64,000 nt of DNA, from contig NZ_JAXAFO010000007.1 of NCBI RefSeq assembly GCF_033898585.1, forward strand, positions 46,272 through 110,271. Reading direction: 5' to 3'. Positions 19,557-39,255 of this stretch are shown here, in pieces. Numbering within the stretch: position 1 is the stretch's first letter; each line of letters begins with the position of its first letter. The notes under the pieces are model-generated. The model was not told where the DNA came from. It worked only from the letters and a program-made list of their open reading frames with translations, and made no database searches. This stretch comes from Gilvimarinus gilvus (GTDB lineage: Bacteria; Pseudomonadota; Gammaproteobacteria; Pseudomonadales; Cellvibrionaceae). A program made the translations under genes and the position numbers.

Positions 19557-22181
19557 TTAGCTATTGTTGGGCTCGGCCAAAGGCAAGCTGATAAAGAATT
19601 CACTGCCTTTGCCAAGTTCAGACTCAAAACTGATGCTGCCTTGCATTTTTTCTGTCAGCGATTTTGCAATGTATAATCCAAGGCCGGTGCCGCTCTTTTC
19701 CCGCGTGTCGGTGGAATCAGCTTGAGAGAATTTTTGGAAAATTTGTTTTCTAAAATACTCTGGCATACCCCGGCCTGAGTCCCGAACCGCAATCACGGCA
19801 TGTTTACCTTCTACGCCCACAGATACGATAACGCTCGCACCCTTATTCGAATATTTAATTGCGTTAGACAAAATATTTACAATGACCTGTGTCAAGCGAT
19901 GTGCGTCGGCCCGAATACAGGTGGCATCTGTCACGTGCTCTTGCCAACTTAACTCTAGGGTCACACCGAAACCATCCGCAAAGCCTTCAACTTGCTGAAC
20001 GACCTGTTTCACTATCGATACCAAGGGAACATCGCTGATTGCAATTTTTAGTTGATCAAACTCCAGCTTTTCAACATCCAATATATCATTCACTAAGGCG
20101 TTCAGGCGCTCGGTATTATTGCGGGCAATGGTAATCATGCTTTTTGCCTTAGCACTGATTTCACCCGTGACACCAGCCTCTACTAATTTCAAGGAGCCCA
20201 CAATAGACGTTAACGGTGTACGCAATTCGTGACTGACGGTACTGATAAATTCACTTTTTAGTTTTTCAGTTTTTTTCCGCTCGGTAATATCATGCAACAT
20301 CACTACATAGTAGGAGCCTTGACTCAATTCTACCGAGCTAATACCGACCTCTACCGCCACTCTTTCGCCATTTTGGGTAATTAATGTGGTATCAAAAACC
20401 GTATTGTTGTGTTCATCGAAGAATCGGCTAATAGTGACTTTTTCTCTGGCAAATGCCTCTAGCCATTCATCAATATGAGAGCCACTGATCGTCGCATCGG
20501 TTGTCGAGAACAGTGTTACAGCAGATTGATTGTGGCGATGTATTACACCGTTTGCGTCGACCGTTAAGATGACATCGGTTGCGCTGTTCAAAATAGACGA
20601 AAGTTCGGCGGTCCTTTCATCCACCAGTTCGCCAATACGTTCAGAACGAACACTCAGCGAAAGTAAAAAACCTCCCAGCAACGCACAAAAAAGAAAACCA
20701 CCCGCCAGCACCGTCCACGTTAGTGTACTTTTGTGCTTGGTAATAAACGTATCGGTAGGCTCTAACGTTATTTTCAACGCCGCACCTGCGAAGGGGTAGG
20801 TCTGCTCAAATCGCAACAATGGCGCCAATTGAGACAGCTTTGCGCTATCTAAAGTCGCGAGATTTTCTTGTTGGTTGCCAACATAATCTACCGCGACAGT
20901 AAATCCCGGGCTTGTACCGTAATCACTTATCAGCTTATTGATCAGTTCTTCCATGACAACGACGGCGGTGGCGAAGCCCTGAGTAGCGCTGAGTTGTTGA
21001 CGACTGACACCTTTTTTATATACAGGGTAAAAAATAAGTAACGCTTTACGTTGCACGGTATCTTGTACCAGCTGTATCGGTGAGGTCATCACCGCCTCGC
21101 CTGTATTTGCACTACGTACCAACGCTTCGCGACGATTTGCTATGGAACCGACATTGAAACTTTGCGCCATTTCATTGCCGACTTTCGGCTCTATATATTT
21201 TACGAAAATATAATCACTATGCTGTCCGGCACCTACCAACACGCCCTCTTCGGAACGCTCGCGAATCATCGCGGGCAAGCCTCGCGCTGCCAGGGCTCGC
21301 TCCTCTTTTGCACGTTCAGGGTGTGCAATGTAAGCATTCCACGATAGTGCATAGAACGCCGGATTGGTTTCCAACACATCCTGCGTAAAAACTGCAAAGT
21401 CCTGTTCGGTGACATCTTGTGAAGCTTGTAGCAAGCCATCAATACTTCTCAGGACTCCCAGTTGCCCCGCCAGAGCCGAATTGAAGTTTGCTGCGAACGG
21501 GACACTCAATTGATTAAAGGCCTTTTCTAGCCGATCAAGTTCAGCGGTATTAATTCTCACAAAAACAAGCGTCATTAAGCTCGTCGCTATGACAATAGGC
21601 AAACCAACGTGAAGAGCGCGTTTTCGCCATACATCCGCCGGTTTGCCAAACGCTACATACATCAAGGGTAACGCCAACATGACACCAATGCTGTCGCCGA
21701 TCCACCAGGTCCACCAGGTAACACCAAGGCTGCCGAGTCCCACAACCCCTGCTGCGTACAGAGCGGCGGTACAAAAGCTAGCACTGAGCACGCAAGCGAT
21801 AGGCCCTGTTGCCAAAAGCAGGGTCGCTATTTCGCCCTCGCGGGTAAACGCTTGTCGCTCTTTTAATATGACCCGGCTCAGCGCGTGAGCCACTGAAACC
21901 GCGAGTGTAGTGCCCAACGCGATACCAGACGCTAATAAGCCACCTTCTGTGGTGAGTGTTTGGTTACTCTGAAAGCTAACCGTCAGATTGAGCGCCAGCG
22001 ACCCCAAAAAGACTGCAGGCAATAGCCGTACGCCTACAAGCAGTACGGCGCCAATGGCAATCCCAATAGGTGGAAAAATAGCCGTGGCGAAACCAGGAGG
22101 AATGGCTAGCATGAGCGCCAATAGGCCCACCACCCAGTAAGCAACCACTAACGATAGGGATTGAATAAAAAACTTAAACAA
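19557..22181 (-). CDS. Sensor histidine kinase: MASE1 - CHASE - PAS - HisKA - HATPase_c (no receiver domain)
   Basis: N-terminal MASE1 polytopic domain. Periplasmic CHASE-like segment. H-box SHELRTPL. G1/G2 boxes (…RDSGRGMP…, …GTGLGL…). Confidence 0.8.
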   Translation of the reverse strand: MFKFFIQSLSLVVAYWVVGLLALMLAIPPGFATAIFPPIGIAIGAVLLVGVRLLPAVFLGSLALNLTVSFQSNQTLTTEGGLLASGIALGTTLAVSVAHALSRVILKERQAFTREGEIATLLLATGPIACVLSASFCTAALYAAGVVGLGSLGVTWWTWWIGDSIGVMLALPLMYVAFGKPADVWRKRALHVGLPIVIATSLMTLVFVRINTAELDRLEKAFNQLSVPFAANFNSALAGQLGVLRSIDGLLQASQDVTEQDFAVFTQDVLETNPAFYALSWNAYIAHPERAKEERALAARGLPAMIRERSEEGVLVGAGQHSDYIFVKYIEPKVGNEMAQSFNVGSIANRREALVRSANTGEAVMTSPIQLVQDTVQRKALLIFYPVYKKGVSRQQLSATQGFATAVVVMEELINKLISDYGTSPGFTVAVDYVGNQQENLATLDSAKLSQLAPLLRFEQTYPFAGAALKITLEPTDTFITKHKSTLTWTVLAGGFLFCALLGGFLLSLSVRSERIGELVDERTAELSSILNSATDVILTVDANGVIHRHNQSAVTLFSTTDATISGSHIDEWLEAFAREKVTISRFFDEHNNTVFDTTLITQNGERVAVEVGISSVELSQGSYYVVMLHDITERKKTEKLKSEFISTVSHELRTPLTSIVGSLKLVEAGVTGEISAKAKSMITIARNNTERLNALVNDILDVEKLEFDQLKIAISDVPLVSIVKQVVQQVEGFADGFGVTLELSWQEHVTDATCIRADAHRLTQVIVNILSNAIKYSNKGASVIVSVGVEGKHAVIAVRDSGRGMPEYFRKQIFQKFSQADSTDTREKSGTGLGLYIAKSLTEKMQGSISFESELGKGSEFFISLPLAEPNNS

Positions 22182-22463
22182 GCGGCGATCCTTAACTAGT
22201 TACCCGAGGCTATTAGAAATTGTAGTCTGATAATCTGGTGCCAAAGCAATATATCATCAGAACACCATAAACATTGCCCGGCGAAGGCTTGTGAGCATTG
22301 ATCGCCCGCAGCTTAAGAGCGCCCGCTTTCTCCAACTAGCTCAATTATTAAGCGCATAGGGCCACTTCGACACCAATAAAAGAACCACAACTGTTTTCGT
22401 TGGCGTATTTTTAAGCATGTCGCGCCAAATACGGCTATAGTCATTGCAACGATGTATTAAATT

Positions 22464-25058
22464 TTGGCAGTAGACAACCAATACCCTGCATATATGAATC
22501 ACCACTCATCCATTCGAGCGACTGCCAAACGCTGGGCCATTATTAGTGTCCTGATAGTGATCGTCACCATGCTACTCGTTGAGCTAAGCCTTGAACGCTA
22601 TATCGCTCAGGTGGAAGGTCAACAGCAGCAATTGATCGCTACCCAAGAGCTTAGCCGACTCAGTGCCGAACTCAGTGGTGTCCTCAACAATAATCTTTCG
22701 TTACTCAGCGGCTTAGCCGCGCATATTGCGATATACCCAGATATCAATCAGCGTGATTTTGAACGCTATGCCAGTACGATCTTTCGCCAGGAGCCTCTAC
22801 TGGTTAATGTTGCGGCTGCGCCCGATCTCGTTGTCGAACTGATCTACCCTCTGGATAACAATAATCGACGCGCCGTCGGTCTCAATTATCGAACCAATAT
22901 CGAACAGCTTCCCGCTGTGGCCAGCTTAACAAAACGCGGCGATATGATTTTGGCGGGACCGGTACAAATGGTGCAGGGTGGCGAAGCGGTTATTGGCCGC
23001 GCCGCAGTCATCACCGCAGACGATCAATTTTGGGGCATTGTTTCAGCGCCTATCTATACGCAAAAGCTTTATAAGGCAGCCGGTATACTCGACAGCAATC
23101 TCCCTGTTGAGATTGGCATACGAGGCTTCGACGGTAAAGGCCGTGACGGCGCCGTCTTTTTTGGCGACCCTTTACTGTTCGACGACCCTCTGACCCAACG
23201 CACAGAATTAACGGTTGCCAATGGCACTTGGCAACTCGCGGCGAGAACCAACTCGAACGTAACCGGGGGTCAGGGTACTACCTACTGGGCGCTGCGCCTG
23301 GCGATTTTGCTCATAGGTGCTACCTTAAGCGCTCTGGTTTTATATCGCTTTCGGCAAACGACACAGGAACAGGATTTTCAGATTGCTCTAAATAAAAATC
23401 AGACATTATTAGAAGAGGTGGGTAAGTTGGCGTTAGTCGGCGGCTGGCAGCTTACCCCTAGGCGAGACTCGTTAGTGTTAAGTCTTTGGAGCGAGCAAGC
23501 CGGGAACATCCTGTGTATGGATACCCCCAACCCCAGCTTAGCGGAGATACTGCGTAGATTTGACCCGAAGCAGGCTAATGACCTAGCCGGACATTTTAAA
23601 AAAGCCTCTCGTGGAAAACCCTTTGATGTAGAGCTACAATTCACGGCGCCAGATAGCGATCAACACTGGGTTAGATTCAAAGGAAAACCACTGGACGATA
23701 CTTCTCCGCCCTACACTGTTCTCGGCTCTGTACAAGATATAACTCAGCGTAAAATTATTACCAATAAAATTCAGCATCAGGCTATTTACGACCAACTCAC
23801 AGGTTTGCCCAATCGCTTGCTTCTTTCCAATCGTCTTAACAAAGCAATTCATCTGAGTCAAAGAAACGGCGAGAAACTCGCCATTTTGTTTATTGATCTA
23901 GACAATTTCAAGCCGGTGAACGATAACTTAGGCCACGCAATCGGTGATCAACTTCTCAGGGAGGTAGCTGCCAGAATCAAAAGCTGTGTCCGGACAACTG
24001 ATACCGTTGCCCGTTATAGCGGAGACGAGTTTATTGTCATATTGATTGATTTGAGCGACGGTAAAATACCGGTGAACATTTCTCAGAGTATTATATCTAG
24101 TATCAACAAGCCATTTTCTATCGATCAGAATACCATATTTTGTGGCGCTAGTATCGGAATATCGCTTTACCCGGATGACGGTACAAATGCCGAGTCGCTG
24201 GTATCAAACGCTGACAAAGCCATGTACGAGGTGAAGAGATCGGGTCGCAACGGCTGGCAGTATTTTACCAAGATCATGCAAATAGAATCGGAAAAAAAGC
24301 ATAATCTTACGACCCAATTAATTCACGCTATACAGAACCGAGAACTGAATGTTCATTATCAACCCATAATCGATTTAGCGTCGCACACCATTTGCAAGTG
24401 TGAAGCCTTAGTTCGATGGAGCAATTCGTCGACCAACATCACAACAGAAGCGTTTATTTCTCTGGCAGAGGAAACCGGTCGCATCAATGAGATTGACCGA
24501 TATGTATTACAGACCGCTAGTGACTATATTACGCAGTTAAACAGGCAGACCGGTAAAGACATAGGCCTTTCGGTTAACGTGTCGCCAAGGGTATTCAGTA
24601 GTAAAGACGATTCGTTAGAGTTATGGATAGCAATTATTGAAAAGGCAGCTCAAAATTTACACATTACTGTGGAAATCACTGAGCGCTTACTGATTGATGA
24701 ATCTGACCATATACTGTCAACCCTTAATAAGCTTAAGTCGTTGGGTGTAAGTTTAGCCATCGATGATTTTGGTACTGGCTATTCATCGCTCAGTTATCTA
24801 ACTCGCTTTCCTATCGACATTCTAAAAGTTGATAAATCTTTTGTCAGCCAACTGGGAGTGCAGAAAACACCTGAATCTCTAACTAAAGCCGTCCTCAGCC
24901 TTGCACACAGTTTGGGCTTGCAAGTAGTCGCGGAAGGCGTGGAAACCGATCGTCAGTTGGCTATTTTGATGAAATGGAACTGTGACTTTGGCCAGGGCTA
25001 TTTCTTTGGTAAGCCTATCCCCGGTGAAGAATTTTTATTGCTCCTCGAAGACAAGTAG
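22464..25058 (+). CDS. CHASE-type periplasmic sensor - PAS - GGDEF - EAL c-di-GMP turnover protein
   Basis: GGDEF (RYSGDEF). EAL (ECEALVRW, DDFGTGYSSLSYL, KVDKSFV). Confidence 0.85.
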   Translation: MAVDNQYPAYMNHHSSIRATAKRWAIISVLIVIVTMLLVELSLERYIAQVEGQQQQLIATQELSRLSAELSGVLNNNLSLLSGLAAHIAIYPDINQRDFERYASTIFRQEPLLVNVAAAPDLVVELIYPLDNNNRRAVGLNYRTNIEQLPAVASLTKRGDMILAGPVQMVQGGEAVIGRAAVITADDQFWGIVSAPIYTQKLYKAAGILDSNLPVEIGIRGFDGKGRDGAVFFGDPLLFDDPLTQRTELTVANGTWQLAARTNSNVTGGQGTTYWALRLAILLIGATLSALVLYRFRQTTQEQDFQIALNKNQTLLEEVGKLALVGGWQLTPRRDSLVLSLWSEQAGNILCMDTPNPSLAEILRRFDPKQANDLAGHFKKASRGKPFDVELQFTAPDSDQHWVRFKGKPLDDTSPPYTVLGSVQDITQRKIITNKIQHQAIYDQLTGLPNRLLLSNRLNKAIHLSQRNGEKLAILFIDLDNFKPVNDNLGHAIGDQLLREVAARIKSCVRTTDTVARYSGDEFIVILIDLSDGKIPVNISQSIISSINKPFSIDQNTIFCGASIGISLYPDDGTNAESLVSNADKAMYEVKRSGRNGWQYFTKIMQIESEKKHNLTTQLIHAIQNRELNVHYQPIIDLASHTICKCEALVRWSNSSTNITTEAFISLAEETGRINEIDRYVLQTASDYITQLNRQTGKDIGLSVNVSPRVFSSKDDSLELWIAIIEKAAQNLHITVEITERLLIDESDHILSTLNKLKSLGVSLAIDDFGTGYSSLSYLTRFPIDILKVDKSFVSQLGVQKTPESLTKAVLSLAHSLGLQVVAEGVETDRQLAILMKWNCDFGQGYFFGKPIPGEEFLLLLEDK

Positions 25059-25094: not shown

Positions 25095-25607
25095 TTATCC
25101 GCAACCAAGTTTTTTTGTTCCAACTATTGCGGAAAAAATAATACCAGCCAATGCGCCGAACAAATGAGACTCAAAAGAGACACCTTCCCGAGTTGGTAGT
25201 ACTCCGTAAATCATCCCACCATATAGAAATACCACTAACATCGCGATAGCGAAACTCTTTAAACTTCGCTCAAACCAAGCAGCGACAATGAGAAAACTCC
25301 ACAACCCAAAAATCCAGCCACTGGCTCCTATGTGAACAGCGTTTCGTCCGAAAGCCCAAACCAGGGTACCGCCAACAACAATAATAAAGACACTGGCAGT
25401 AAAAAACTGACGAATTGAGCGCAGTAAAAAAATGCCGGCCAACACACTAAGGCCAATTATATTGTTAAGCAAATGACTGTAGCTTGCGTGGATAAACGGC
25501 GCCGTCAATACACCAAACCAGTGTTGTTTGTCGCGGGGTATGATTCCATATTGAATCAATTCCCCCCCCATACCTAGATTAATAATATGTACGGCGAGTA
25601 AAAGCAA
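25095..25607 (-). CDS. Rhomboid-family intramembrane serine protease. N-terminus uncertain.
   Basis: TM2 H…N motif (YSHLLNN), TM4 GASGW (GxSG), TM6 SHLFGALAG (His). TTG start from the ORF track. The in-frame hydrophobic stretch continues upstream, where no canonical start codon is available. Confidence 0.65.
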   Translation of the reverse strand: MLLLAVHIINLGMGGELIQYGIIPRDKQHWFGVLTAPFIHASYSHLLNNIIGLSVLAGIFLLRSIRQFFTASVFIIVVGGTLVWAFGRNAVHIGASGWIFGLWSFLIVAAWFERSLKSFAIAMLVVFLYGGMIYGVLPTREGVSFESHLFGALAGIIFSAIVGTKKLGCG

Positions 25608-25665
25608 AACCAGGCCTGCAATAATACGTAGGCGCAGGTATAGAGATTTTTCAACGGTAGTAATA

Positions 25666-28600
25666 CTAGCTCGTTCCTTTATTTGGGGTACTCGCCACTT
25701 CCGCCTCCAGTGACCTCAATTGGTTTGAAATGTCAGACATTTTTTCATGGGTACGCAAATCAATTTCAAGCTTCTTGTCCATACTCCTCACCAGAGGAAA
25801 TATACTATGCTCTATTGTCTCAGCTAGTACGGTCAGTACTTTGTCGATACCAGGCACAGGTTCATTGACAACTTTAATGGAGGGTTTTGACTTTTTCACG
25901 ACCTCTGACAGTTTATCTATCATTGCGGTTAGCGCTTCACTTGCTGCGGTATCACTGGATTCAACTTTTTTCGTATTGATCACAGCATTTGACAGGGTCT
26001 GTACCCCACTCACCAAATCAGCCAATTGGACGACTATCTTGCCGCCCGTATTTGCGTCATCGCCACCCATGGCTTTATTACGCTGGAAGTCTGTTTTTAT
26101 TTGCTGCCAACGCGATTGCTGCTCTGGGCTCATATTTCCGCGAATTTCAGCCAACTTCAGTAGGTTATCTTCTGCGCCTGTGGTTAATAACTGTGCCTCA
26201 CCCTGGTAGTGATCCTCAATCATTTGCATTAATTCGCGTTCGTTCATGACGGCAGATACCTTCTCCGTCATTTTGTTCATGTTCCGATAGCTACCTTGCA
26301 GCTTAAAGGGCGGCTCTGTTCGATATTTGTCGTTCTGCACAGCAGAGGCAATATACTGCTGGTTAATTTTGAGAATAACGTCTTGAATAACGAACATCTT
26401 TTGCAGTACTTGTTTGATTTCGTTAATTTCCGCCCCGCTATAGGAGTGGCTCAAGTCAGTCGTAGCAATGTTCACGCCTTTTGCCATATCGATGAGTTTA
26501 TAAACATCATTCATTTCTCGAACGGCTAGCGGTGCCAATACCGGATTGGACGTCAGCGCATTCTCAACGTAACTCAACGCAAACTGCTCGTCCATTCCAC
26601 CCAGTATATCGCCCAGATTGTATATATCCGCCCGGTTAGCAAGCATATCCGGAATTTTGAATGCCTCCCCTGATTCCGTGTAAGGGTTACCCGCCATAAC
26701 GACACAGAATTTTCTGCCACGCATATCATAGGTTTTTGTTCTTCCCTTCCAAACACCTTCTATACGCCGGGTACCATCACACAAGGATATAAATTTCTGC
26801 AGAAATTCCGGGTGTGTATGTTGAATATCATCTAAATACAGCATGACATTGTTGCCCATTTCCAGGGCCAGATTTAGCTTATACAACTCCTGTCTGGCGG
26901 TTGCGTTGGGAGCCTGGTCCGGGTCCAAGGACATTACGTCGTGCCCCAAAGAGGGACAGTTGATTTTCATGAATATCAACCCCAGACGGTTTGCCACATA
27001 TTCCATCAAAGTGGTTTTACCGTAGCCCGGAGGGGAAATCATCATCAACAGGCCCATAAGATCAGTACGCTTGTTTTCCCCCACCGTTCCCATTTGTTTT
27101 GCTAAATTGTCGCCAATTAGTGGCAAATAAGATTCGTTGATTAACCGGTTGCGCACGAACGAACTCAGCGGTCTTGGCTTATATTCCTCTAACCGCAATG
27201 CTTCGCGGTTGCGGCCAATTACTTCCTGTCGCAGGTTTAAATACTTCTGATAGGTAGGTATGACTTCGAATTTGTGTTGCTCCATACGCTGAAGGTAGGC
27301 GTCCAACGCAAAGCTTGTTTGTCTGTTTTCGATACGCGGGTGATCGCCGAGTAATCCGTTAAACGTCAGCTCCAGATCAGCCTCCGTAAAACGTCGCTCC
27401 AACCTCTCATCGGCGTTAATAAGCGCTACTGCTTCCGGTATATAACGGCGCAAATGCTCCAAGTCCTTTTCCACGATGAGCGCTTGCAACCATGCCACGG
27501 ATAGATTCCAGCGCTCCGCTGGCCAACCCATCATTTTTTCCAGCGCCATCTGGTAGCGGCGCCAGGTATTATCGTCCATAGACCGCTTGAGCTCTTCGGC
27601 TAGCTGTGTTGCGTACTTACTGCCAATAAATTCAACACGTTCGCGGCTAAGCTCTGCGACTAGATAGTCCGCAGCCCGGCGAATATCAATACTCGATACC
27701 GGTATTGGGTGACGCTCGATGAAAACACAAAGTGCTTCGCGCACTTCAGTCGCTAAAAGCTCGAGCGCCTCTGTACTGGCAAATACCGTTTGCATGTGCG
27801 ACGCAGACTGAGCGCGTTCTGGCCAGGTGTTAAAAGACAATAATTCGCGCTCGGATTGTTTCGGTTTACGTTTTACCTGGCTGTTTATATTTGCCCAGAA
27901 TATTTGGGCTAAACCGCGACTCAATGGATCAAAACGCAGGAGGTCTGCGCGCTCCAGTGCGGGCAGTATTTCTTTCAGCAAGACGACCGCATCGTGATCA
28001 TGAATACCTCTTTCATACCCCTCTTTGTACCTGGGAGCGGCAAAGTCCTTCACAATTGTCGCCAGCACGTCCTCGTCAAGAAGCCCTTTGTTTAACTTGT
28101 CCAGCGAGAGGCCATGTTGCTGCTTATGAGCCGCATCAATAATGAGCGACGCCAAAAACTCTCCGCGATAAACGTCCGGCGTTTCAGACTCCAGAGATAG
28201 ATCCCAGAAGTCTTCTGAATCCTGTAGACCGGGATCTTCCACCGGCTCAAAATAATTTGTTCCTGTTAAATGTAAGTTCAGTTTTCCTTCGCGCGGTATT
28301 ATCGTAAGGTCAAGCTCCTGGGTGTTAACTGAAAACTTGTGGCGGGGGCCCAGCTTAATAACATTGCCACCATCTTCAAAAATGTCACTTTTATCGCGCA
28401 ACGACCGCAGCGCTTGCTCTTTAATTGCTTTATAGCGCGACTCAATATCATCGGCTTTTACCGAGCTGTCGAGTTCGCGCAACTGTTCTACCAGCTCTTT
28501 TGACTTTAGTACGAGCGCGTCTGACGCGAAATAAGTATTTAACTTGTCTGAATCTGTGAATTTTAACGAACGTTTTTCGACACTCAGCAAAATACGCTCT

Positions 28601-30975
28601 GCAGCATCACCGACCGATTGCGCCTTGCGCTGTCTGGCGTCAAGCAACTTTTGCTTGTGGCTTTCAAAGGACTCATAGACTTCTTCACGCTTGTCCATTA
28701 TATCGGTCAGAAACTGGTCAAAATCACTAAATTGACTTTCAAATTCCTCCAACTGAACAAGCAGGCGCGATAACTGTTCGTCGCACTTTTCTGGGGTTGT
28801 GGAAAGGCCCAATGCATTGGTTATACTTTGAGAGAACAGTTTAAATTGAGCCGAAAATTGAGATTTCGCCTCCTCTGACCCTAGATTCTTTCGTTTGTGT
28901 GTTGCATTGGCCTTGCTCTGATTAAGCTTCGCATAAACTGTAGAAATGGCGTCGATGATGCGAGTTCTAACAGTAGCATCATCCACCTTTAGTGTGCCCA
29001 TCAACTCAGACAGCAAATCAAGACTAAAAGCTGACTGCTCTATAGACTCTATAAGCGGCTGCAGGCTCGCATTGGTATTCGCTTTTTCAACTTCGCTATT
29101 GAGGTCTTCAATTTTCTGCAAAAAAGGGTCTAGGGAGTTCTCGTGTGATAGAAATTCAACGGTTTTTTTAGATACCGTTGCTTCAACCTCCCGTAGCTGT
29201 TCATCGAGCTCTTCAATTCTGACAACATCGATATAGCGATAATCTTTAATGGTGGTCAGGTGACCGCGTTGCTGGCGTATTTTTGCCAGAGCATCTACAT
29301 ACTCTTGTGCTGCAACCCAATTTTCAGATTGCACCGATTGAACCAGTATTTGCTGATTCCGCTCGGCCTCAGACATGGTTTTATCTGACTGCAGACGTAT
29401 ACTTTGAACCTTTTCAAATTCATCAATAACCAGCTCTGATGTCGCTGCAATATCCTTTACAATGTCAACGATCGCTTGGGTTTGTTCGGTACTAATCCAG
29501 TAGTGATCGTCAAATATTTTCTGGGCTGCTTTGCTAAGCTCTTCGTATAGGCGAAGCGATACAGACTGATCATCGATAATACGACTTATACTGAACAGGT
29601 CCGAAACACCTCGAACTAACTCCGCATTACCAATTTTACCGAGAAAGGTTTGGCTACTGGGTACCTTGCTCGCAAATTCTGCACTTTGATAGGGTGTTTG
29701 CCATACCTGCATGGGGTGTACGCGCGTTGGCTCACTTTCTGCCGAAAAAATAACCAACTGCCCATTCTCGGCGAGTGCATAACCGTGGCCGTATATCGGA
29801 TTCTGAAGCTTTTTTTCAATTAAATTGTAAGCGAAAAGCCCTACGACTCCATCAATCGGATCGTAGAATATGTAGAGTACATCCTCACCGTTTGGCGATC
29901 GGATGGAGCGCTTAAACTTTAAACTAACCGAGACTTCGTCGAAATTTTTGAACTCTCCGGTTTGCAAATAGTATCCGCCGGGAAAGACTAGCCCGTGATC
30001 TTCTGGTAGCTGGACGCATGACTGGCCAATCGCATCAACCCTAATAACTGTCTCAGTCAACGAATTGAATATAAGATAACGAAACTCGTCTTCACGGTAG
30101 GGTTTCACACGCACTAGTATAAGGTCGCCTACCGACGCATAGGCTATTTCTGCATCATCGAGAGATTGGGTTCGATCTTCCACAGGCTCGCGATAGACGC
30201 CCAGCCCGTCTTCCGTATTGTTCTCCGTTTTTATTGTGAGGTCACCGTTTGTGGTCTCTACAAAAACGGTATCGAGAATATTGATATGAGCGTGGCGACC
30301 ATGCACAATATCATCACGCGTGGTGTTTACCCACTCAAAGTCATACCGCGAAGGTAGTTTTATGTCTCGTTCGCCGCGGTTATCAATATACTGAACCTCT
30401 GTGCCATCGGCCGACACCGACCAGCGGAAAACACGTATATCATCCGGGCGCTCACCGATTTGAAATCCGGCTAACAGCTTTCCATCTTTAATAGTCAGTT
30501 CGGTCAATCGGGTTTGCTTGTAGTAGCGATAGAGCTCCTCGAAGTCGTTGACAAAGCCAGACTGAGACAAAAAAGTACCCGCAAAGGGAGCCGGCTTCAT
30601 CTCATAACTTTCATTGGTTTCTTCAAGTTTAAATAATGCGAAAACGTCTTCAACTTTGGTTTCTTTTTTTAACCCAATAAAAACGTTGTAACCAAATAGG
30701 AGGTACTCACCAACCTGCACAATATCGCGGGCAATGCAGTTGTTTTCAGTGCGCACCCGAACGCGCGCCTTAACTTCCATATCCGCGCTACCAAACTCCT
30801 CAAGTCGCGCAGCGTTGAGATTCGAGGCCTGTTCGAAAAGAGCTTTGCTTTGAGCTTCTAGCCGCTTGCGTATGATTTCATAGGCACCACCTTCGGCTAC
30901 TGCGCTATCGACAACATCATTGTTTTCCACCGCCACATCCGGTTGTTCCATATCACCACCTTTTACTCTGTACAC
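25666..30975 (-). CDS. 1769-aa multidomain protein: beta-rich N-terminal domain, about 800 aa of helical/coiled-coil region, then a MoxR/AAA_5-like AAA+ ATPase domain near the C-terminus
   Basis: Walker A MISPPGYGKTTL. Walker B VMLYLDD. MoxR-like VVMAGNPYTESGEAFKIPDMLANRADIYNL. Single uninterrupted ORF 42 nt downstream of the flotillin gene. Confidence 0.7.
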   Translation of the reverse strand: MYRVKGGDMEQPDVAVENNDVVDSAVAEGGAYEIIRKRLEAQSKALFEQASNLNAARLEEFGSADMEVKARVRVRTENNCIARDIVQVGEYLLFGYNVFIGLKKETKVEDVFALFKLEETNESYEMKPAPFAGTFLSQSGFVNDFEELYRYYKQTRLTELTIKDGKLLAGFQIGERPDDIRVFRWSVSADGTEVQYIDNRGERDIKLPSRYDFEWVNTTRDDIVHGRHAHINILDTVFVETTNGDLTIKTENNTEDGLGVYREPVEDRTQSLDDAEIAYASVGDLILVRVKPYREDEFRYLIFNSLTETVIRVDAIGQSCVQLPEDHGLVFPGGYYLQTGEFKNFDEVSVSLKFKRSIRSPNGEDVLYIFYDPIDGVVGLFAYNLIEKKLQNPIYGHGYALAENGQLVIFSAESEPTRVHPMQVWQTPYQSAEFASKVPSSQTFLGKIGNAELVRGVSDLFSISRIIDDQSVSLRLYEELSKAAQKIFDDHYWISTEQTQAIVDIVKDIAATSELVIDEFEKVQSIRLQSDKTMSEAERNQQILVQSVQSENWVAAQEYVDALAKIRQQRGHLTTIKDYRYIDVVRIEELDEQLREVEATVSKKTVEFLSHENSLDPFLQKIEDLNSEVEKANTNASLQPLIESIEQSAFSLDLLSELMGTLKVDDATVRTRIIDAISTVYAKLNQSKANATHKRKNLGSEEAKSQFSAQFKLFSQSITNALGLSTTPEKCDEQLSRLLVQLEEFESQFSDFDQFLTDIMDKREEVYESFESHKQKLLDARQRKAQSVGDAAERILLSVEKRSLKFTDSDKLNTYFASDALVLKSKELVEQLRELDSSVKADDIESRYKAIKEQALRSLRDKSDIFEDGGNVIKLGPRHKFSVNTQELDLTIIPREGKLNLHLTGTNYFEPVEDPGLQDSEDFWDLSLESETPDVYRGEFLASLIIDAAHKQQHGLSLDKLNKGLLDEDVLATIVKDFAAPRYKEGYERGIHDHDAVVLLKEILPALERADLLRFDPLSRGLAQIFWANINSQVKRKPKQSERELLSFNTWPERAQSASHMQTVFASTEALELLATEVREALCVFIERHPIPVSSIDIRRAADYLVAELSRERVEFIGSKYATQLAEELKRSMDDNTWRRYQMALEKMMGWPAERWNLSVAWLQALIVEKDLEHLRRYIPEAVALINADERLERRFTEADLELTFNGLLGDHPRIENRQTSFALDAYLQRMEQHKFEVIPTYQKYLNLRQEVIGRNREALRLEEYKPRPLSSFVRNRLINESYLPLIGDNLAKQMGTVGENKRTDLMGLLMMISPPGYGKTTLMEYVANRLGLIFMKINCPSLGHDVMSLDPDQAPNATARQELYKLNLALEMGNNVMLYLDDIQHTHPEFLQKFISLCDGTRRIEGVWKGRTKTYDMRGRKFCVVMAGNPYTESGEAFKIPDMLANRADIYNLGDILGGMDEQFALSYVENALTSNPVLAPLAVREMNDVYKLIDMAKGVNIATTDLSHSYSGAEINEIKQVLQKMFVIQDVILKINQQYIASAVQNDKYRTEPPFKLQGSYRNMNKMTEKVSAVMNERELMQMIEDHYQGEAQLLTTGAEDNLLKLAEIRGNMSPEQQSRWQQIKTDFQRNKAMGGDDANTGGKIVVQLADLVSGVQTLSNAVINTKKVESSDTAASEALTAMIDKLSEVVKKSKPSIKVVNEPVPGIDKVLTVLAETIEHSIFPLVRSMDKKLEIDLRTHEKMSDISNQLRSLEAEVASTPNKGTS

Positions 30976-31018
30976 CTAAAGAAGCAGGGAGCAGCTGCCC
31001 CCTGTTACCCGCAAATTT

Positions 31019-32983
31019 TTATCCTTGGGTTTCTTCTTTATCTGTCGATGTAAAGCTTGGAATAATGGGCTTTCCGGAAATTACACGATCGATTAACGAC
31101 TGAATCGTGCTACTTTTGTCAGCCAGACCATCGACAGCTTTACCGATAGACAGCGATTTCGCAAAGTTGTCGAAGAAATGATCCTCACCGCCAACAATAT
31201 CGATTTTCGCTTTTTGCAGCGCAACAGCAAGAACTTCTGCATTCTCCTTCGCGATATCTTTACCGGCGTCAATAGAAGCCAATGCCTCTTTAAGCGCAGT
31301 CTCTAAGCCCATACGATATTCTTCGTGTGCGCGCGCATCTTCACTCATGCTGTTCATCGCGCCAAATTTATCGACCAGACCATCAGCTTCGGCTTTGAAC
31401 TGTTCGCGTGTTACTTCGGCATTTGACATACCAATTTCTCTCGCGGCTTTGGCTTCTGATTCGCCTTTTGCTGCAATTACTTCAGCTTCTGCTTTACCCG
31501 TTCCTAAGTGAGCGTCTGCTTCGGCATCCCCTTTCGCGCGAATAACGTTGGCCTCTGCAACACCTTCTTTTTCCAACGCATCCGCTTTGGCTTCCTGCAC
31601 TTTAGCGTCAGCCAGACCAGGAGCGGCTCGCTCAGCCTGAACGCCTTCAGCAAGCTTTTTCTTGGAGTCGGCTTCTTTAGCCGATGCTTCAAGGTTAGCT
31701 TGTGCAATAGTAGTGATTTCTACGGCTTTGTGTTTTGCCGCAAGCTCTTCGGCCTCAGCAGCCTTGACCTGCTTGACCTTCTCTTCGTCGGCTTGCGCCT
31801 CGGCGGCAAGCACTTGTGTTTGCTTGGCGCGATCCGCTTCTGAAATTTCACGAACCTCTTTAATTCGCTCTTCTTCAATGGCGACTGTTTTGTCAACAGC
31901 GATACGTTCGCGAATAACATTCGCTATTTCTTTTCTCTCTACCTCTACAGCTTTTTCCGCGGCTATACGTTGGAGTTCTACTTCGCGCTCTCTGGAAACA
32001 ATTTCCAGGTCCCTTGCCCGGGTTACTTTTTCAACTTCAATAACCACGGCTCTTTGGCGATTTTGCTCGGCCACTTCAATTTCGCGTTTTTGGTTCTCCG
32101 TTTGAACGGAAAGGTCTTGATCGGCCTGAATGGTTGCTGTTTCAAATTTGAGCCTTTCTTCTTCCTGAACCTTTTTGGTTTCAGCTTCTTCGCGTGCGCG
32201 TATAGTGGCAATTTCTCTTTCTTGCTTAGCTTCGGCATCCGCCTGCTGACGATCCAGCTCTAGCATCGCCTCCACGGTTTCAACGTTCTTTTTCTTTACG
32301 GCGAGCTCTTCATCGCGCTCCAGCATGTTTGTTGTCACATTCTGCTTCGCGGTGAGCTCTGTAATCTTTTTGATACCCTCGGAGTCGAGAATATTGGTAG
32401 GGTCGAGTGACGATTTTGGTGTTTGTTCAAGATAGTCGATTGCCACGTCTTCAAGCACGTAACCGTTGAGATCTTCCCCGATAACTCGAATAATCTTTTC
32501 GCGGAACTCTAAGCGGTCTTCAAATAACTTAACAAAGTCAATTTGTTTACCTACAGTTTTTAGCGCCTCAGAAAACTTCGCGTTGAACAGTTCGTTAACC
32601 GCGCCTTTGTCAGAGGCCCGATTGGCGCCAATGGATTTGGCCACTTTCAAAACATCCTCCGCGGTTTCATTGACTCTTAAGTAGAAGGCAACCGTGATAT
32701 CAGCTCGCATATTATCCGCACAAATAAGGCCATCCTTGCCTCTTCTGTCGACTTCGAGCGTAATCAAAGAGATTTTCATCATCTCTTTTTTGTAGATGAT
32801 CGGATAGACCAGAGCACCGGTAAAATGCACTTTGGGTTTCGCTGACATATCATTGACGATAAGGGCCGTACCCTGATCGACCTTGACATAGAAGGCTTTG
32901 AATAGAGCCGCAAACCCCATTAAGACAATAAAGAAAATGCCAGCGCCAATTGCGATTGGCATAAGGCCTGATAGATCAGCCAT
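31019..32983 (-). CDS. yqiK: Flotillin-family (YqiK-type SPFH/band 7) membrane protein
   Basis: N-terminal TM, an SPFH domain, then a long E/A/K-rich flotillin coiled-coil region. Confidence 0.8.
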   Translation of the reverse strand: MADLSGLMPIAIGAGIFFIVLMGFAALFKAFYVKVDQGTALIVNDMSAKPKVHFTGALVYPIIYKKEMMKISLITLEVDRRGKDGLICADNMRADITVAFYLRVNETAEDVLKVAKSIGANRASDKGAVNELFNAKFSEALKTVGKQIDFVKLFEDRLEFREKIIRVIGEDLNGYVLEDVAIDYLEQTPKSSLDPTNILDSEGIKKITELTAKQNVTTNMLERDEELAVKKKNVETVEAMLELDRQQADAEAKQEREIATIRAREEAETKKVQEEERLKFETATIQADQDLSVQTENQKREIEVAEQNRQRAVVIEVEKVTRARDLEIVSREREVELQRIAAEKAVEVERKEIANVIRERIAVDKTVAIEEERIKEVREISEADRAKQTQVLAAEAQADEEKVKQVKAAEAEELAAKHKAVEITTIAQANLEASAKEADSKKKLAEGVQAERAAPGLADAKVQEAKADALEKEGVAEANVIRAKGDAEADAHLGTGKAEAEVIAAKGESEAKAAREIGMSNAEVTREQFKAEADGLVDKFGAMNSMSEDARAHEEYRMGLETALKEALASIDAGKDIAKENAEVLAVALQKAKIDIVGGEDHFFDNFAKSLSIGKAVDGLADKSSTIQSLIDRVISGKPIIPSFTSTDKEETQG

Positions 32984-33017
32984 AGTGGTTACTCCGTTTC
33001 CAAATTAGTTAAAGTAA

Positions 33018-33707
33018 TTATTCGTTTCCTAAGAACTCTTTTTCCGATATAACCCGGAAAGTGTTTTTCTCTTTTAGGTGCTCGAGTAGAACCACACGAT
33101 CACCCTTGCTAAAGGTCTCGCCAGATGTAGACCTAACTTTCAGTAGTAAACCAGCACCACCGTCTTCTAAAATTGCTTCGCCAAATGTCTCATCGACTAC
33201 TGATGTTCTTACAATAGCCGTTTGTCCCACCACATATTTAATGGCCTGGTACTGGGAGCTCTTAAAAAGGGGGCGAATCGGTTTTATCACCACCGCTGTC
33301 ACCATTACCGCGAGATATAGGCAGAACAACAGAACGGGTATTCCAACCAGAAAACTGACAAACCCGCCAGGAATAAAACCAAACAGGAAGTGCACGATAT
33401 AGTAGGAAATTAGCCAGCCGAACAAAGCAATAAATGAAATAATAATCGTTAACGGCACACCGTGTAGGCCAAAGCGCAACATTAAACCTGCTAGCATCTC
33501 GGGATTGCTAAGCCCATCACCCTGTGCGCCGACGCCGTCCGGGTCCGGAAGATCGAAATCCAAAAATTCGATATCGATAAAACCCAATACAGCCACCAAC
33601 CAGTACAAAACCGTTATGACCAGTAGAAACGTAAAGATTACGGTGGGAAAGGAAGATATATTCTGATAAAAAGGGTCCATATCTTCGAGAAAAAAGATTG
33701 TAAACAT
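33018..33707 (-). CDS. yqiJ: YqiJ/NfeD-like membrane protein with a C-terminal OB-fold
   Basis: Multi-TM N-terminus. C-terminal beta domain (…GQTAIVRTSVVDETFGEAILEDGG…GDRVVLLE…). The classic partner of yqiK. Confidence 0.6.
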   Translation of the reverse strand: MFTIFFLEDMDPFYQNISSFPTVIFTFLLVITVLYWLVAVLGFIDIEFLDFDLPDPDGVGAQGDGLSNPEMLAGLMLRFGLHGVPLTIIISFIALFGWLISYYIVHFLFGFIPGGFVSFLVGIPVLLFCLYLAVMVTAVVIKPIRPLFKSSQYQAIKYVVGQTAIVRTSVVDETFGEAILEDGGAGLLLKVRSTSGETFSKGDRVVLLEHLKEKNTFRVISEKEFLGNE

Positions 33708-33766
33708 TGGCCCACGTCCCTATTCTATTTTGATGGGCGACCAAAACACGGCCGCCCTAATAGCTG

Positions 33767-34450
33767 TTATTTTTTCTTTAAACGCTCAAGAATGTCATCG
33801 GCACTTTTGCCACTGGGCGCAATACCTGCTTCTTCAAGTTTGGACTTTAAAGACGCCTCCGTAGTTTCTTCGGATATTTCTTTAGCCGCTTCCATTTGTG
33901 CCGCTTTCAGTGCTTGCTTTTCTTTAATTCGTTCCAATGAGTCCATTGCGGTTCTCATTTTTGACTGCGAGCCACTATGTCTTTCTGCCACGGCGGCCTG
34001 CGCTCTTTGCACATTCTCCGTGGCCTTTACCGTATCCACTTGCTGTTTGAAGCGTTTCAGGTTTTGCTCGGCCTGCTTTATCGCAATGCGCAGTGACGTC
34101 AGGCTTTGCTCAAAGCCTTTTGCTGCGTCAGCCTCATTTGCCAACTGATTCTCAAGGTCAGCTAGCTTTTCCGCCACCTCGCGGGCGAGCGCCTCTTCGC
34201 CCTTGTCTAGCGCTTTTATCGCATAACTTTCGTGCTCTTTGATCTGACCTTCAATCTGAGCGCACCGCTCTTCAGCGACCTTTTTGCGCGCCAGTATATC
34301 GGCGAGACTGTCTTTTGATTGCTTTAGCTCCTCGGCAGATTCGCGAATTTCCTGATCCAGAATCCGCAAAGCCTGGCTATCTACAATGGCTTCACCGGCT
34401 TCGTTTACGCCGCCTTTAAGGGCTGTCATCATTTTTGACCAAATGTTCAT
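33767..34450 (-). CDS. PspA/IM30/Vipp1 (ESCRT-III-like) family protein, YjfJ-like
   Basis: 227 aa, all-helical. MNIWSKMMTALKGGVNEAGEAIVDSQALRILDQEIRE… matches the PspA/YjfJ N-terminal pattern. Confidence 0.85.
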   Translation of the reverse strand: MNIWSKMMTALKGGVNEAGEAIVDSQALRILDQEIRESAEELKQSKDSLADILARKKVAEERCAQIEGQIKEHESYAIKALDKGEEALAREVAEKLADLENQLANEADAAKGFEQSLTSLRIAIKQAEQNLKRFKQQVDTVKATENVQRAQAAVAERHSGSQSKMRTAMDSLERIKEKQALKAAQMEAAKEISEETTEASLKSKLEEAGIAPSGKSADDILERLKKK

Positions 34451-34464
34451 TACTATGCTCCTGA

Positions 34465-35097
34465 TTAACTCGCCGCGACGGATAGTTTTAAATGTTCGCC
34501 ATAGGCCTCGGTCGCCTGAATCACATTGCTCGCCAACACCTCGATTTCAAAGACCACATTGTGCAACAATGACGTGGAACTAAGGGCTCCGAACATTTGA
34601 TAGTAATCTCCGTTGGCGCCCATCTGGTCAAGGCTAATGGTAGAAAGCGGAAAGTATTTATGAGTCCTAAGAATTAAATCGTTGAATCGAGCAACATCAA
34701 CCACTTCGTCTACCGACCAAAGTACAGACTCAACAATAATCTGATCGCCCGCCACGGTTAGGAAAATCGGCAAGTCACCATACTCTTTCATGGTGATGTG
34801 TATCGCCTTGTCTACCCCCTCAATCAGCTCGACACTCGCCATATCACTGGTAAGCAACTCTGTATTGGTAAGGGCTTCATATAGGCTGGTAGTATCCCAA
34901 CTATTCTCTCGTCTCTCAGTCATGCTTTTTTCTCCTTTTAAAGCAAACGACTCGCCACGCTCTCTTAGCAACTTCTCTAGCTCAGCAAGTTGTCCCGCAT
35001 TTTCTGGAAGTATCCAGACTTCTTTCTTAACCAGGCCCTGTTCACGGAGCCTTTTTCGATATTCGCGCTGATAGTGTGCAGAAGATTTCGCTTTCAT
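34465..35097 (-). CDS. YjfI-like (DUF2170) protein with an extra basic N-terminal segment of about 50 aa
   Basis: C-terminal 150 aa match the DUF2170 pattern (DLPIFLTVAGDQIIVESVLW…FNDLILRTHKYFPLSTISL…GDYYQMFGALS). N-terminus AHYQREYRKRLREQGLVKKEVWILPE. Followed 14 nt downstream by the PspA gene. Confidence 0.55.
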   Translation of the reverse strand: MKAKSSAHYQREYRKRLREQGLVKKEVWILPENAGQLAELEKLLRERGESFALKGEKSMTERRENSWDTTSLYEALTNTELLTSDMASVELIEGVDKAIHITMKEYGDLPIFLTVAGDQIIVESVLWSVDEVVDVARFNDLILRTHKYFPLSTISLDQMGANGDYYQMFGALSSTSLLHNVVFEIEVLASNVIQATEAYGEHLKLSVAAS

Positions 35098-35110
35098 AGG
35101 ATCATCTTAG

Positions 35111-35160
35111 TTTGTTACATGTGATACTGTCAAGAAATTACATGTAATATCAACAGTATC
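35111..35160. promoter_or_regulatory. Concentric palindromic operator-like site upstream of the operon
   Basis: TTACATGT-GATACTGT-caagaaa-TTACATGTAA-tatca-ACAGTATC. The outer 8-bp inverted repeat and the inner perfect 10-bp palindrome share a centre 40-45 bp upstream of the start codon at 35097. Confidence 0.4.
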
Positions 35161-35633
35161 GTTTTAGTTACGGCACTGGGGCCAATCAAAAACGATAGTT
35201 CGGGTATCAAATGCACACTAGCAGACGCGTGCTGGACGGGTTGTGTTTTAGCTTGGGCAGAAATAATTCAATATCCTTATGAGTGGGCGCTTATCCTTAA
35301 AACAGGGCGCTGACGGAAACTTGGCCCCCTTATTTTATGCTCTGATACGGGACATGTACCAGCTAACGCAGACTTCGGAGAAGTATATCCAATTATCTAT
35401 GTGTTAGGTATGTCTTCCATATTATCGGTTTACTGTTGCAATTTCTGGTCACTCTGGAGCGCTTTTTTGGCAATTGCACATCAGGATGCAGGGGCGGCAC
35501 ACCTTAGTTGCAACGAATGATGCGAACCCGCAAAAACGAAGAGAAAAAGGCGTTGGCGCACTGAGCACCTAACAGACAAAAGGTGCAAGCCTAATAATAT
35601 CCCAGTTGATTCGCTTCGACACATTAGCTTCCT

Positions 35634-35668
35634 ATAAAAAAGGCGCCAATACAAAGTAAAGGCGCCTC
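35634..35668 (-). terminator. Rho-independent terminator of gyrB
   Basis: Minus strand reads AGGCGCC-(13-nt loop)-GGCGCCT followed by TTTTTTATAG, about 25 nt after the gyrB stop. Confidence 0.6.
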
Positions 35669-35693
35669 AAATTACTTAATAGTGAATACTTAC

Positions 35694-39255
<3,562 letters not shown>

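Follow-up and report, generated by a model that had tools for sequence, protein, structure and literature searches.

A biofilm-associated cluster of Pseudomonas aeruginosa, PA3729-PA3732, was defined by Mace (2008; PMC2587700), and its PspA-like gene PA3731 was found to be induced by osmotic shock and to be needed for biofilm formation, swarming, rhamnolipid production and virulence. It was later reported that six genes, bacA-F, are co-transcribed according to RT-PCR, and that a bacA::Tn mutant accumulates 6- to 13-fold more BacB-F (Wallart 2024; PMC10948618). The same study solved the structure of BacA, which has the fold of a type III secretion system (T3SS) chaperone, and an interaction between BacA and BacB has been predicted by AlphaFold2 (AF2) at 0.981 (PMC13092808). 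In addition, Ravi et al. (mSystems 2024; PMC11237479) catalogued an operon class in which a CesT/Tir-PspA pair is combined with a Band-7/flotillin protein, a novel AAA+ protein and a YqiJ/YuaF protein. Abbreviated forms consisting of Band-7, YqiJ and AAA+ were described too, and an analogy of the ESCRT-III/Vps4 type was drawn for other PspA-AAA+ pairs. Here we describe a six-gene operon from Gilvimarinus gilvus, encoded on a 64,000-nt stretch of contig NZ_JAXAFO010000007.1 (referred to below as the window). Judged from its sequence, this Gilvimarinus locus is orthologous to the bac or PspA-flotillin-AAA+ operon and adds a member to a system that is known but poorly understood.

The original prediction, made from the sequence before any database search, had not recognised this combination of genes as a described system. 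It corresponds instead to the bac operon (PMC2587700, PMC10948618) and to the operon class of PMC11237479, and only the rhomboid gene at its 3′ end is absent from those descriptions. Rhomboids are mentioned neither in PMC10948618 nor in PMC11237479 nor in the supplement examined. The details which were not found in the literature searched are the rhomboid-bearing architecture, the N-terminal domain of BacA with its operator, and the leaderless promoter.

The products of the first two genes could be assigned directly. BacA matches Pfam DUF2170 (E 3.8e-50), scores above the cutoff of the NCBIfam equivalog NF050185, "biofilm formation regulator BacA" (307.6 bits, cutoff 300), and shares 30% identity with Escherichia coli YjfI. 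Residues 66-205 form the DUF2170/YjfI CesT/Tir-like chaperone domain, and it is only there that PDB entry 8Q8O can be aligned (E 2e-38). BacB matches Pfam PspA_IM30 (E 8.1e-46) and has 35% identity to E. coli YjfJ over its full length (E 5e-36), but it is not a canonical PspA, as it reaches only 17.8 bits with TIGR02977 (cutoff 243).

For BacC and BacD, direct sequence searches of Pfam, NCBIfam and PDB were empty, and both proteins were resolved only by comparison with E. coli YqiJ and YqiK. BacC has no significant Pfam match (YqiJ_N is below threshold at E 0.053). A BLASTP match to the C-terminal (OB-fold) half of YqiJ (E 1e-5) is weak evidence for the relationship, and NCBI names the protein DUF1449. 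BacD was found neither by the Pfam models, Band_7 and Flot included, nor in PDB sequence searches. However, when its family profile was aligned to YqiK, which itself carries Band_7 and Flot, hhalign gave a probability of 99.8% (E 5e-29, 32% identity over 409 columns, residues 7-470). Homologues of BacD are 80-92% identical across Cellvibrionales. All four families named by the original prediction (YjfI, YjfJ-type PspA, YqiJ and YqiK flotillin) are retained, that of BacC on the weak match just mentioned.

The fifth protein, the giant ATPase BacE, has Pfam matches to DUF3686 (E 1.5e-202), DUF7902, AAA, AAA_22 and AAA_5. An N-terminal helix is followed by a beta-propeller (DUF3686), a long helical region which includes DUF7902, a single divergent AAA+ module and a helical C-terminus. 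The Walker A motif GYGKT is located near residues 1317-1321 (numbering of the 1769-aa open reading frame) and the Walker B motif is LYLDD. In an AF2 model of residues 1-720 (pLDDT 72), a helix at 17-61 and propeller strands at 67-426 precede the long helices. A fold search with the propeller returned only generic propellers with low TM-scores, and the top matches to "propeller + solenoid" proteins of the IFT-A/nucleoporin type are unreliable and were discarded. With the N-terminal 720 residues as query, the family comprises 943 representatives at 50% clustering; full-length members, down to 27% identity, uniformly have 1590-2036 aa.

BacE had been predicted to be MoxR-like. The AAA+ fold is confirmed by Pfam and by fold matches, while the assignment to MoxR is neither confirmed nor excluded by the mixed clade signals. 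The AAA_5 match is marginal (23.5 bits, cutoff 22) and the scores of the Pfam AAA models conflict. Foldseek matches of the AAA+ region, modelled poorly by AF2 (pLDDT 60), include RuvB, ClpB, Rix7, NorQ and CbbQ alike. When PDB was searched with the family profile, the matches were confined to the segment around Walker A (p97, NVL, Rix7 and RuvB; about 35 residues, E about 1e-3), and no MoxR protein was among the top 60. No VWA domain was found in the six operon proteins or in the products of the flanking genes.

Conservation of the operon was analysed in a scan for two conserved motifs of the ATPase, in which each GTDB species was represented by one genome. At least 572 matches were confirmed and the best 80 loci were analysed. 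Wherever upstream sequence is available (77 loci), the gene directly upstream of the ATPase codes for a flotillin, and in 73 of 73 loci this gene directly follows a YqiJ-like one. In 53 of 70 loci, the triad is preceded by long-form BacA and PspA. Of the remaining 17, 14 have neither BacA nor PspA nearby and three have PspA with a BacA that is absent or a short YjfI-like protein. The order A-B-C-D-E was found by phmmer-based synteny in P. paraeruginosa (locus L041) and in 52 other loci. These neighbourhoods show that the YqiJ-flotillin-ATPase core is invariant and that the front module of BacA and PspA is optional; they also bear out the predicted tie between the giant ATPase and SPFH genes. 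The recurrence of this gene order in dozens of genomes shows that the arrangement is not due to chance. The operon is vertically conserved, with 68-92% identity across the whole order.

The region upstream of bacA has a conserved architecture of its own. TTGACA-18-TAAGAT is the best sigma-70 match of this region, and the two palindromes listed in Table 1 are the only exact matches to TYACATGTRA in the window, where 0.18 would be expected. At least two ACATGT cores occur within 110 nt upstream of the gene in 49 of 53 orthologous regions, compared to a background of 0.016 per 110 nt. Their positions are fixed at -26/-25 and at -50 to -47, inside a palindrome T(T/C)ACATGT(A/G)A, and the palindromes flank a TTGAC(A) -35 element. 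In 48 of the 53 regions, a -10 element of the form TAnnnT has its end 5-8 nt upstream of the ATG, and the start codon of bacA is ATG in all aligned loci in which the start-anchoring motif is kept (51 and the window). Because the -10 element of the window ends 6 nt before the ATG and no Shine-Dalgarno sequence is found 5′ of bacA, a leaderless bacA mRNA is predicted.

The palindromes can be connected to the N-terminus of BacA. Codons 1-65 (34903-35097) code for a basic domain of about 45 residues and a variable linker. The consensus of this domain, KSSAHYQREYRxRLREQGLVKKEVWILPE..L...E..LR, occurs in all 53 orthologues, and UrfF, "plasmid repression protein F", is matched below threshold (E 2.4e-4). 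In all 17 loci without long-form BacA, the palindromes are absent upstream of the YqiJ-like gene, and of 97 palindromes counted in the 53 loci with BacA, 92 are situated at the start of bacA. Thus, palindromes and N-terminal domain co-occur strictly, which makes BacA a putative autorepressor that acts through this domain. Such a role fits both the 6- to 13-fold derepression in the bacA mutant and the predicted BacA-BacB complex.

We consider it likely that the operon encodes the Gilvimarinus version of a conserved envelope membrane-stress and remodelling system of Gammaproteobacteria and their relatives, with a mechanism of the following kind. BacD and its NfeD-like partner BacC would jointly build SPFH/flotillin assemblies on the inner membrane. 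BacE may dock on this scaffold via its beta-propeller and helical regions, and its one AAA+ module would then serve to build up, remodel or clear away the scaffold or its clients. BacB, which has an ESCRT-III fold, would be recruited for stabilisation or repair of the membrane. The CesT-like domain of BacA is proposed to bind BacB, while its N-terminal domain would repress the operon at the two palindromes, which bracket the -35 element and fill the sigma-70 spacer. In this way BacA would couple the availability of BacB to transcription of an mRNA that starts at the ATG, and the repression would be lifted by stress in which BacB and BacA are recruited to the membrane. The rhomboid would be an optional accessory enzyme, and in other genomes its place is taken by a phospholipase D-like protein (PLD), by both enzymes, or by a Zn-ribbon protein; it may process a membrane-anchored component or a client inside the flotillin domain.

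Several points weigh against this reading. The mechanism in G. gilvus is a prediction from sequence, and we know of no biochemical activity for any of the Bac proteins. That BacA binds DNA is suggested by its co-occurrence with the palindromes alone, and the N-terminal domain has no match in PDB or Pfam. The clade of the AAA+ module appears mixed in a model of poor quality. Close homologues of the rhomboid were found away from the operon in two of five sampled cases, and a comparison of loci with and without a rhomboid revealed no rhomboid-substrate signature in the transmembrane (TM) anchor of BacD, loci of both kinds being alike. On these two grounds the role of the rhomboid is the weakest link. 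Finally, a sigma-54 promoter has been proposed instead in PMC10948618 and PMC2587700. When we searched for TGGCAC-N5-TTGC with up to two mismatches, no such element was present in 35098-35693 of the window, and its frequency in relatives is at chance level (6 of 52 regions, 6.1 expected). A sigma-54 promoter was rejected on these data, and the upstream region suggests autorepression by BacA instead.

The sixth protein is a rhomboid, as predicted (Pfam Rhomboid, E 1.6e-18, 67.7 bits, cutoff 22.6). Its Ser/His catalytic dyad (GASG and H...G...G) is intact, and at least 95% of 37 operon-linked homologues retain the motifs HxxxxHLxxN, HxGASG and SxExHxxGxxxG. With 40.1 bits, the protein stays below the TIGR03902 cutoff of 84 and is no rhombosortase. 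Downstream of the ATPase, 21 of 77 loci have a rhomboid followed by a PLD, 12 only a rhomboid, 7 only a PLD, and 37 have other genes, a recurrent Zn-ribbon protein among them, or nothing. No PLD adjoins the operon in the window, where a convergent gene comes after that of the rhomboid. In P. paraeruginosa (L041), bacE is succeeded by a gene for a 235-aa PLDc_2 protein. As BacF of the P. aeruginosa group is a PLD, the sixth gene of the window is not an orthologue of bacF.

An alternative view is that the rhomboid is an unrelated housekeeping gene which abuts the operon, so that bacABCDE alone would be the functional unit. Homologues with 55-60% identity in unrelated neighbourhoods (L085 and L087) are in its favour, as are the 41 of 77 operons without a rhomboid and the PLD that is found instead in operons of the P. 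aeruginosa type. However, a rhomboid is present in 36 of 77 loci, where it often overlaps the stop codon of the ATPase by 4 nt, and it occurs in three positions relative to the operon, which include a site between bacB and bacC (L043) and a divergent one upstream of bacA (L012, L040). In the window, the reading frame of the rhomboid extends without interruption to the stop codon of the ATPase. Among five further homologues of the window rhomboid that were sampled, three adjoin a DUF3686 ATPase; the two others are those from unrelated neighbourhoods. We consider the housekeeping explanation rather unlikely. The idea of a rhomboid subfamily dedicated to the operon was rejected because of these two homologues, and the rhomboid is a frequent accessory rather than a dedicated subunit. 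For the same reason, the claim that it occupies the slot of a ClpP-like protease is speculative.

A protein of about 180 aa with a Zn-ribbon of the TFIIB type recurs in several relatives, either directly 3′ of the giant ATPase or after rhomboid and PLD (Table 1). It may be a further accessory component. In two loci, a small gene is inserted between flotillin and ATPase, which codes for a DUF2059 protein of 163 aa in L088 (2163-2654) and corresponds to an unannotated open reading frame of 107 aa in L083 (4120-4443).

Assemblies of an SPFH scaffold and a protease are represented by HflK/C-FtsH, by stomatin-STOPP (with a long NfeD) and by mitochondrial SLP2-PARL-YME1L. A more far-reaching interpretation would be that rhomboid, PLD and Zn-ribbon protein are genuine subunits of a bacterial, flotillin-caged machine for membrane quality control or remodelling. 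This would be an undescribed functional analogue of SLP2-PARL-YME1L with an ESCRT-III repair arm, controlled by the chaperone-fused autorepressor BacA on a leaderless transcript. We regard this interpretation as unlikely. If it is true, SPFH scaffold, NfeD partner, giant AAA+ motor, intramembrane protease and lipid-modifying enzyme together make up this machine, and BacA represents a new type of chaperone-fused autorepressor.

The original prediction suggested by analogy that the giant ATPase acts like Vps4 on ESCRT-III. In its strict form this would make BacE a motor that takes PspA polymers apart, and all six genes would code for a single ATP-driven machine of PspA remodelling. Indeed, 53 of 70 loci have PspA and ATPase in one operon, the segment around Walker A is similar to that of the classical AAA clade (Vps4, p97), and the analogy has been used for other PspA-AAA+ pairs (PMC11237479). 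The analogy is weakened by the 14 of 70 loci in which the triad lacks BacA and an adjacent PspA, and by three more in which the front module is rearranged. As the triad is invariant while BacA and PspA vary, the obligate partner of the ATPase is the flotillin pair, and as the triad also occurs without PspA, the flotillin scaffold is a more likely target of the ATPase than PspA, on which it would act like Vps4. Furthermore, no MIT-like domain was found, and the resemblance to classical AAA proteins covers only the 35 or so residues around Walker A. PspA is probably not the main substrate of the motor, and we consider the strict Vps4 model quite unlikely.

It is very improbable that the operon is an anti-phage or abortive-infection module which senses envelope damage and uses rhomboid and PLD as membrane effectors. 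PspA is related to phage shock, PLD and rhomboid are effector-like, and in a metagenomic relative (L089, 9468-16591) the operon is followed by genes for Vsr, a DNA methylase, Z1 and DUF4420. This surrounding is defence-island-like and unlike the core-genome gyrB site of the window. In another relative, an integrase gene is found near the operon (L088, 14736-15170). However, PADLOC gave only coiled-coil noise to LmuB (E about 5e-4), the site beside gyrB belongs to the core chromosome, the operon is inherited vertically, and the phenotypes in P. aeruginosa are physiological (PMC10948618, PMC2587700).

It is hardly credible that "DNA repair ATPase" is the right name for the giant protein and that its place amid membrane genes is a coincidence: this reading is suggested by the title of DUF3686 (Pfam PF12458, "ATPase involved in DNA repair"), by the NCBI product name and by the site downstream of recF-gyrB, but no experimental basis for the name was found and DUF3686 is mentioned in no paper of the literature searched, no nuclease, helicase or DNA-binding domain was detected in the protein, the flotillin/YqiJ synteny extends over all 77 loci and across families, and P. 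aeruginosa BacE is co-regulated with BacB-D (PMC10948618), so that the label is unsupported by literature, domain content and gene context.

Table 1. Features of the bac-type operon of Gilvimarinus gilvus (coordinates in the window) and genes for Zn-ribbon proteins in relatives (coordinates in the respective locus).
Feature	Coordinates	Strand	Description
bacA	34465-35097	-	210 aa; DUF2170/YjfI
bacB	33767-34450	-	227 aa; PspA/IM30 of YjfJ type, ESCRT-III fold
bacC	33018-33707	-	229 aa; multi-pass membrane protein, probably of YqiJ/YuaF (short NfeD, DUF1449) type, with C-terminal OB-like domain
bacD	31019-32983	-	654 aa; flotillin-like SPFH protein: N-terminal TM anchor, SPFH domain, long Glu/Ala/Lys-rich coiled coil
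bacE	25666-30951	-	1761-aa giant ATPase; maximal open reading frame to 30975 (1769 aa)
rhomboid gene	25095-25664	-	minimal core form; annotated 170 aa from TTG 25607, probably 189 aa
promoter/operator region	35104-35147	-	palindromes, -35 and -10 upstream of bacA
palindrome 1	35138-35147	-	TTACATGTAA; exact TYACATGTRA
-35 element	35128-35133	-	TTGACA; sigma-70
palindrome 2	35115-35124	-	TCACATGTAA; exact TYACATGTRA
-10 element	35104-35109	-	TAAGAT; ends 6 nt before the bacA ATG
Zn-ribbon protein gene, L002	15325-15858		
Zn-ribbon protein gene, L026	15333-15881		
Zn-ribbon protein gene, L074	15070-15618		
Zn-ribbon protein gene, L088	9553-10083		

All six open reading frames of the original prediction were recovered at their positions on the minus strand. 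Gaps of 14, 59, 34 and 58 nt between them were confirmed, while the fourth gap, between bacD and the giant gene, has 43 nt and not 42. Two of the start codons deserve a revision. The giant gene most likely starts at the ATG at 30951, which is preceded by the Shine-Dalgarno sequence AAAGGTGG; the GTG at 30975 has none and is the less likely start. A 1761-aa NCBI protein is 100% identical to the product that starts at this ATG. With the ATG as start, the gap to bacD becomes 67 nt. A GC-rich hairpin at 30985-31004 is located just 5′ of this start in the bacD-bacE intergenic region; it was considered as an attenuator and rejected, as shuffled sequence reaches a comparable folding energy (z = 0.09).

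The annotated rhomboid start, the TTG at 25607, is also that of the 170-aa NCBI model (WP_302723869.1). It probably makes the protein too short. The frame is open 5′ of it back to the stop codon of the ATPase (25607-25668), and the 19 residues upstream of the TTG can be aligned with the first TM helix of homologues, which measure 181-200 aa. An ATT at 25664 is preceded by the Shine-Dalgarno sequence AAGGA; translation from there would yield a protein of 189 aa and leave a gap of about 1 nt to the ATPase gene. The products of all six genes are each 100% identical to NCBI entries of Gilvimarinus sp. SDUM040013 / G. gilvus.

The boundaries of the operon are clear. On the 5′ side, a hairpin with a T-run follows gyrB at about 35635-35667, as read directly from the sequence, and on the 3′ side the operon meets a convergent CHASE-GGDEF-EAL gene. 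Within the operon the gaps are short, there is one strong promoter, and no convincing internal terminator was found. The operon is located directly downstream of recF-gyrB (35694-39255) on the core chromosome.

The region at the 3′ end of the operon (19557-25058) codes for two large signalling proteins with CHASE domains. One is a MASE1-CHASE-PAS histidine kinase on the minus strand and the other is the CHASE-GGDEF-EAL protein on the plus strand, the gene of which is convergent with the rhomboid gene. The cumulative GC skew has its minimum at about 50-52 kb. Together with gyrB and recF beside the operon, this indicates that the window probably spans the region of the replication origin.

The system is of interest for several reasons. 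It is widespread, as one stringent scan found it in more than 570 species-level genomes, and in P. aeruginosa both biofilm formation and virulence are affected by it. The system joins three ancient membrane-organising modules, namely ESCRT-III/PspA, SPFH/flotillin and AAA+. The obligate partners of the ATPase are flotillin and YqiJ proteins, not PspA, and what varies is the sixth gene, which codes for an accessory enzyme (rhomboid and/or PLD). The largest protein of this system is mislabelled in the databases as a "DNA repair ATPase". The published model of BacA and the sigma-54 hypothesis probably miss the N-terminal domain, the palindromic operator and a leaderless sigma-70 transcript.

Compared to ESCRT-III/Vps4 and to PspF-PspABC, the bac operon has in common that a protein with ESCRT-III fold is encoded together with an AAA+ protein and, as proposed, that there is negative feedback on its own operon. 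It differs from canonical Psp systems in having no genes for PspF, PspB and PspC and no conserved sigma-54 promoter, and a MIT domain is likewise missing. Unlike in Vps4 and Psp systems, its AAA+ protein is linked primarily to flotillin and not to PspA. With SPFH-protease assemblies it shares, by analogy, an SPFH scaffold, an NfeD-type partner and an AAA+ protein, and in the mitochondrial case also a rhomboid. For the bac operon this likeness is one of genes. No protease domain was detected in BacE, and homology to FtsH and YME1L does not reach beyond the AAA+ fold.

In E. coli, BacC and BacD have their homologues in YqiJ and YqiK, and BacA and BacB in YjfI and YjfJ. As the original prediction correctly stated, the two pairs are separate; yqiJK and yjfIJ are about 1.2 Mb apart, and neither adjoins a giant ATPase or a rhomboid. 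The yjfIJ pair is found with polyamine-related genes (yjfKLMC), and YjfI is devoid of the N-terminal domain.

The operon class of Ravi et al. (PMC11237479) shares with the window the dyad of DUF2170 CesT/Tir protein and YjfJ-type PspA, the Band-7/flotillin protein (recognised by hhalign to YqiK) and what is modelled as a giant propeller-AAA+ protein. Its abbreviated form was also seen by us as loci with C-D-E only, and PLD is an occasional member in both data sets. The rhomboid, the N-terminal domain of BacA and the operator are not part of that description.

Another close relative is bacABCDEF of P. aeruginosa (PA3732-PA3727 / PA14_16140-16200). The published BacA of P. aeruginosa (16 kDa; the 146-aa chain of 8Q8O) does not include the N-terminal domain that is conserved in the orthologues, and the sigma-54 proposal for the operon is not supported by the comparative data. 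The sixth gene codes for a PLDc_2 protein in P. paraeruginosa (L041) and for a rhomboid in the window. Orthologues of BacA-BacE are encoded in the same order on one strand in both (L041), and the L041 locus of the P. aeruginosa group has the same architecture of promoter and palindromes as the window.

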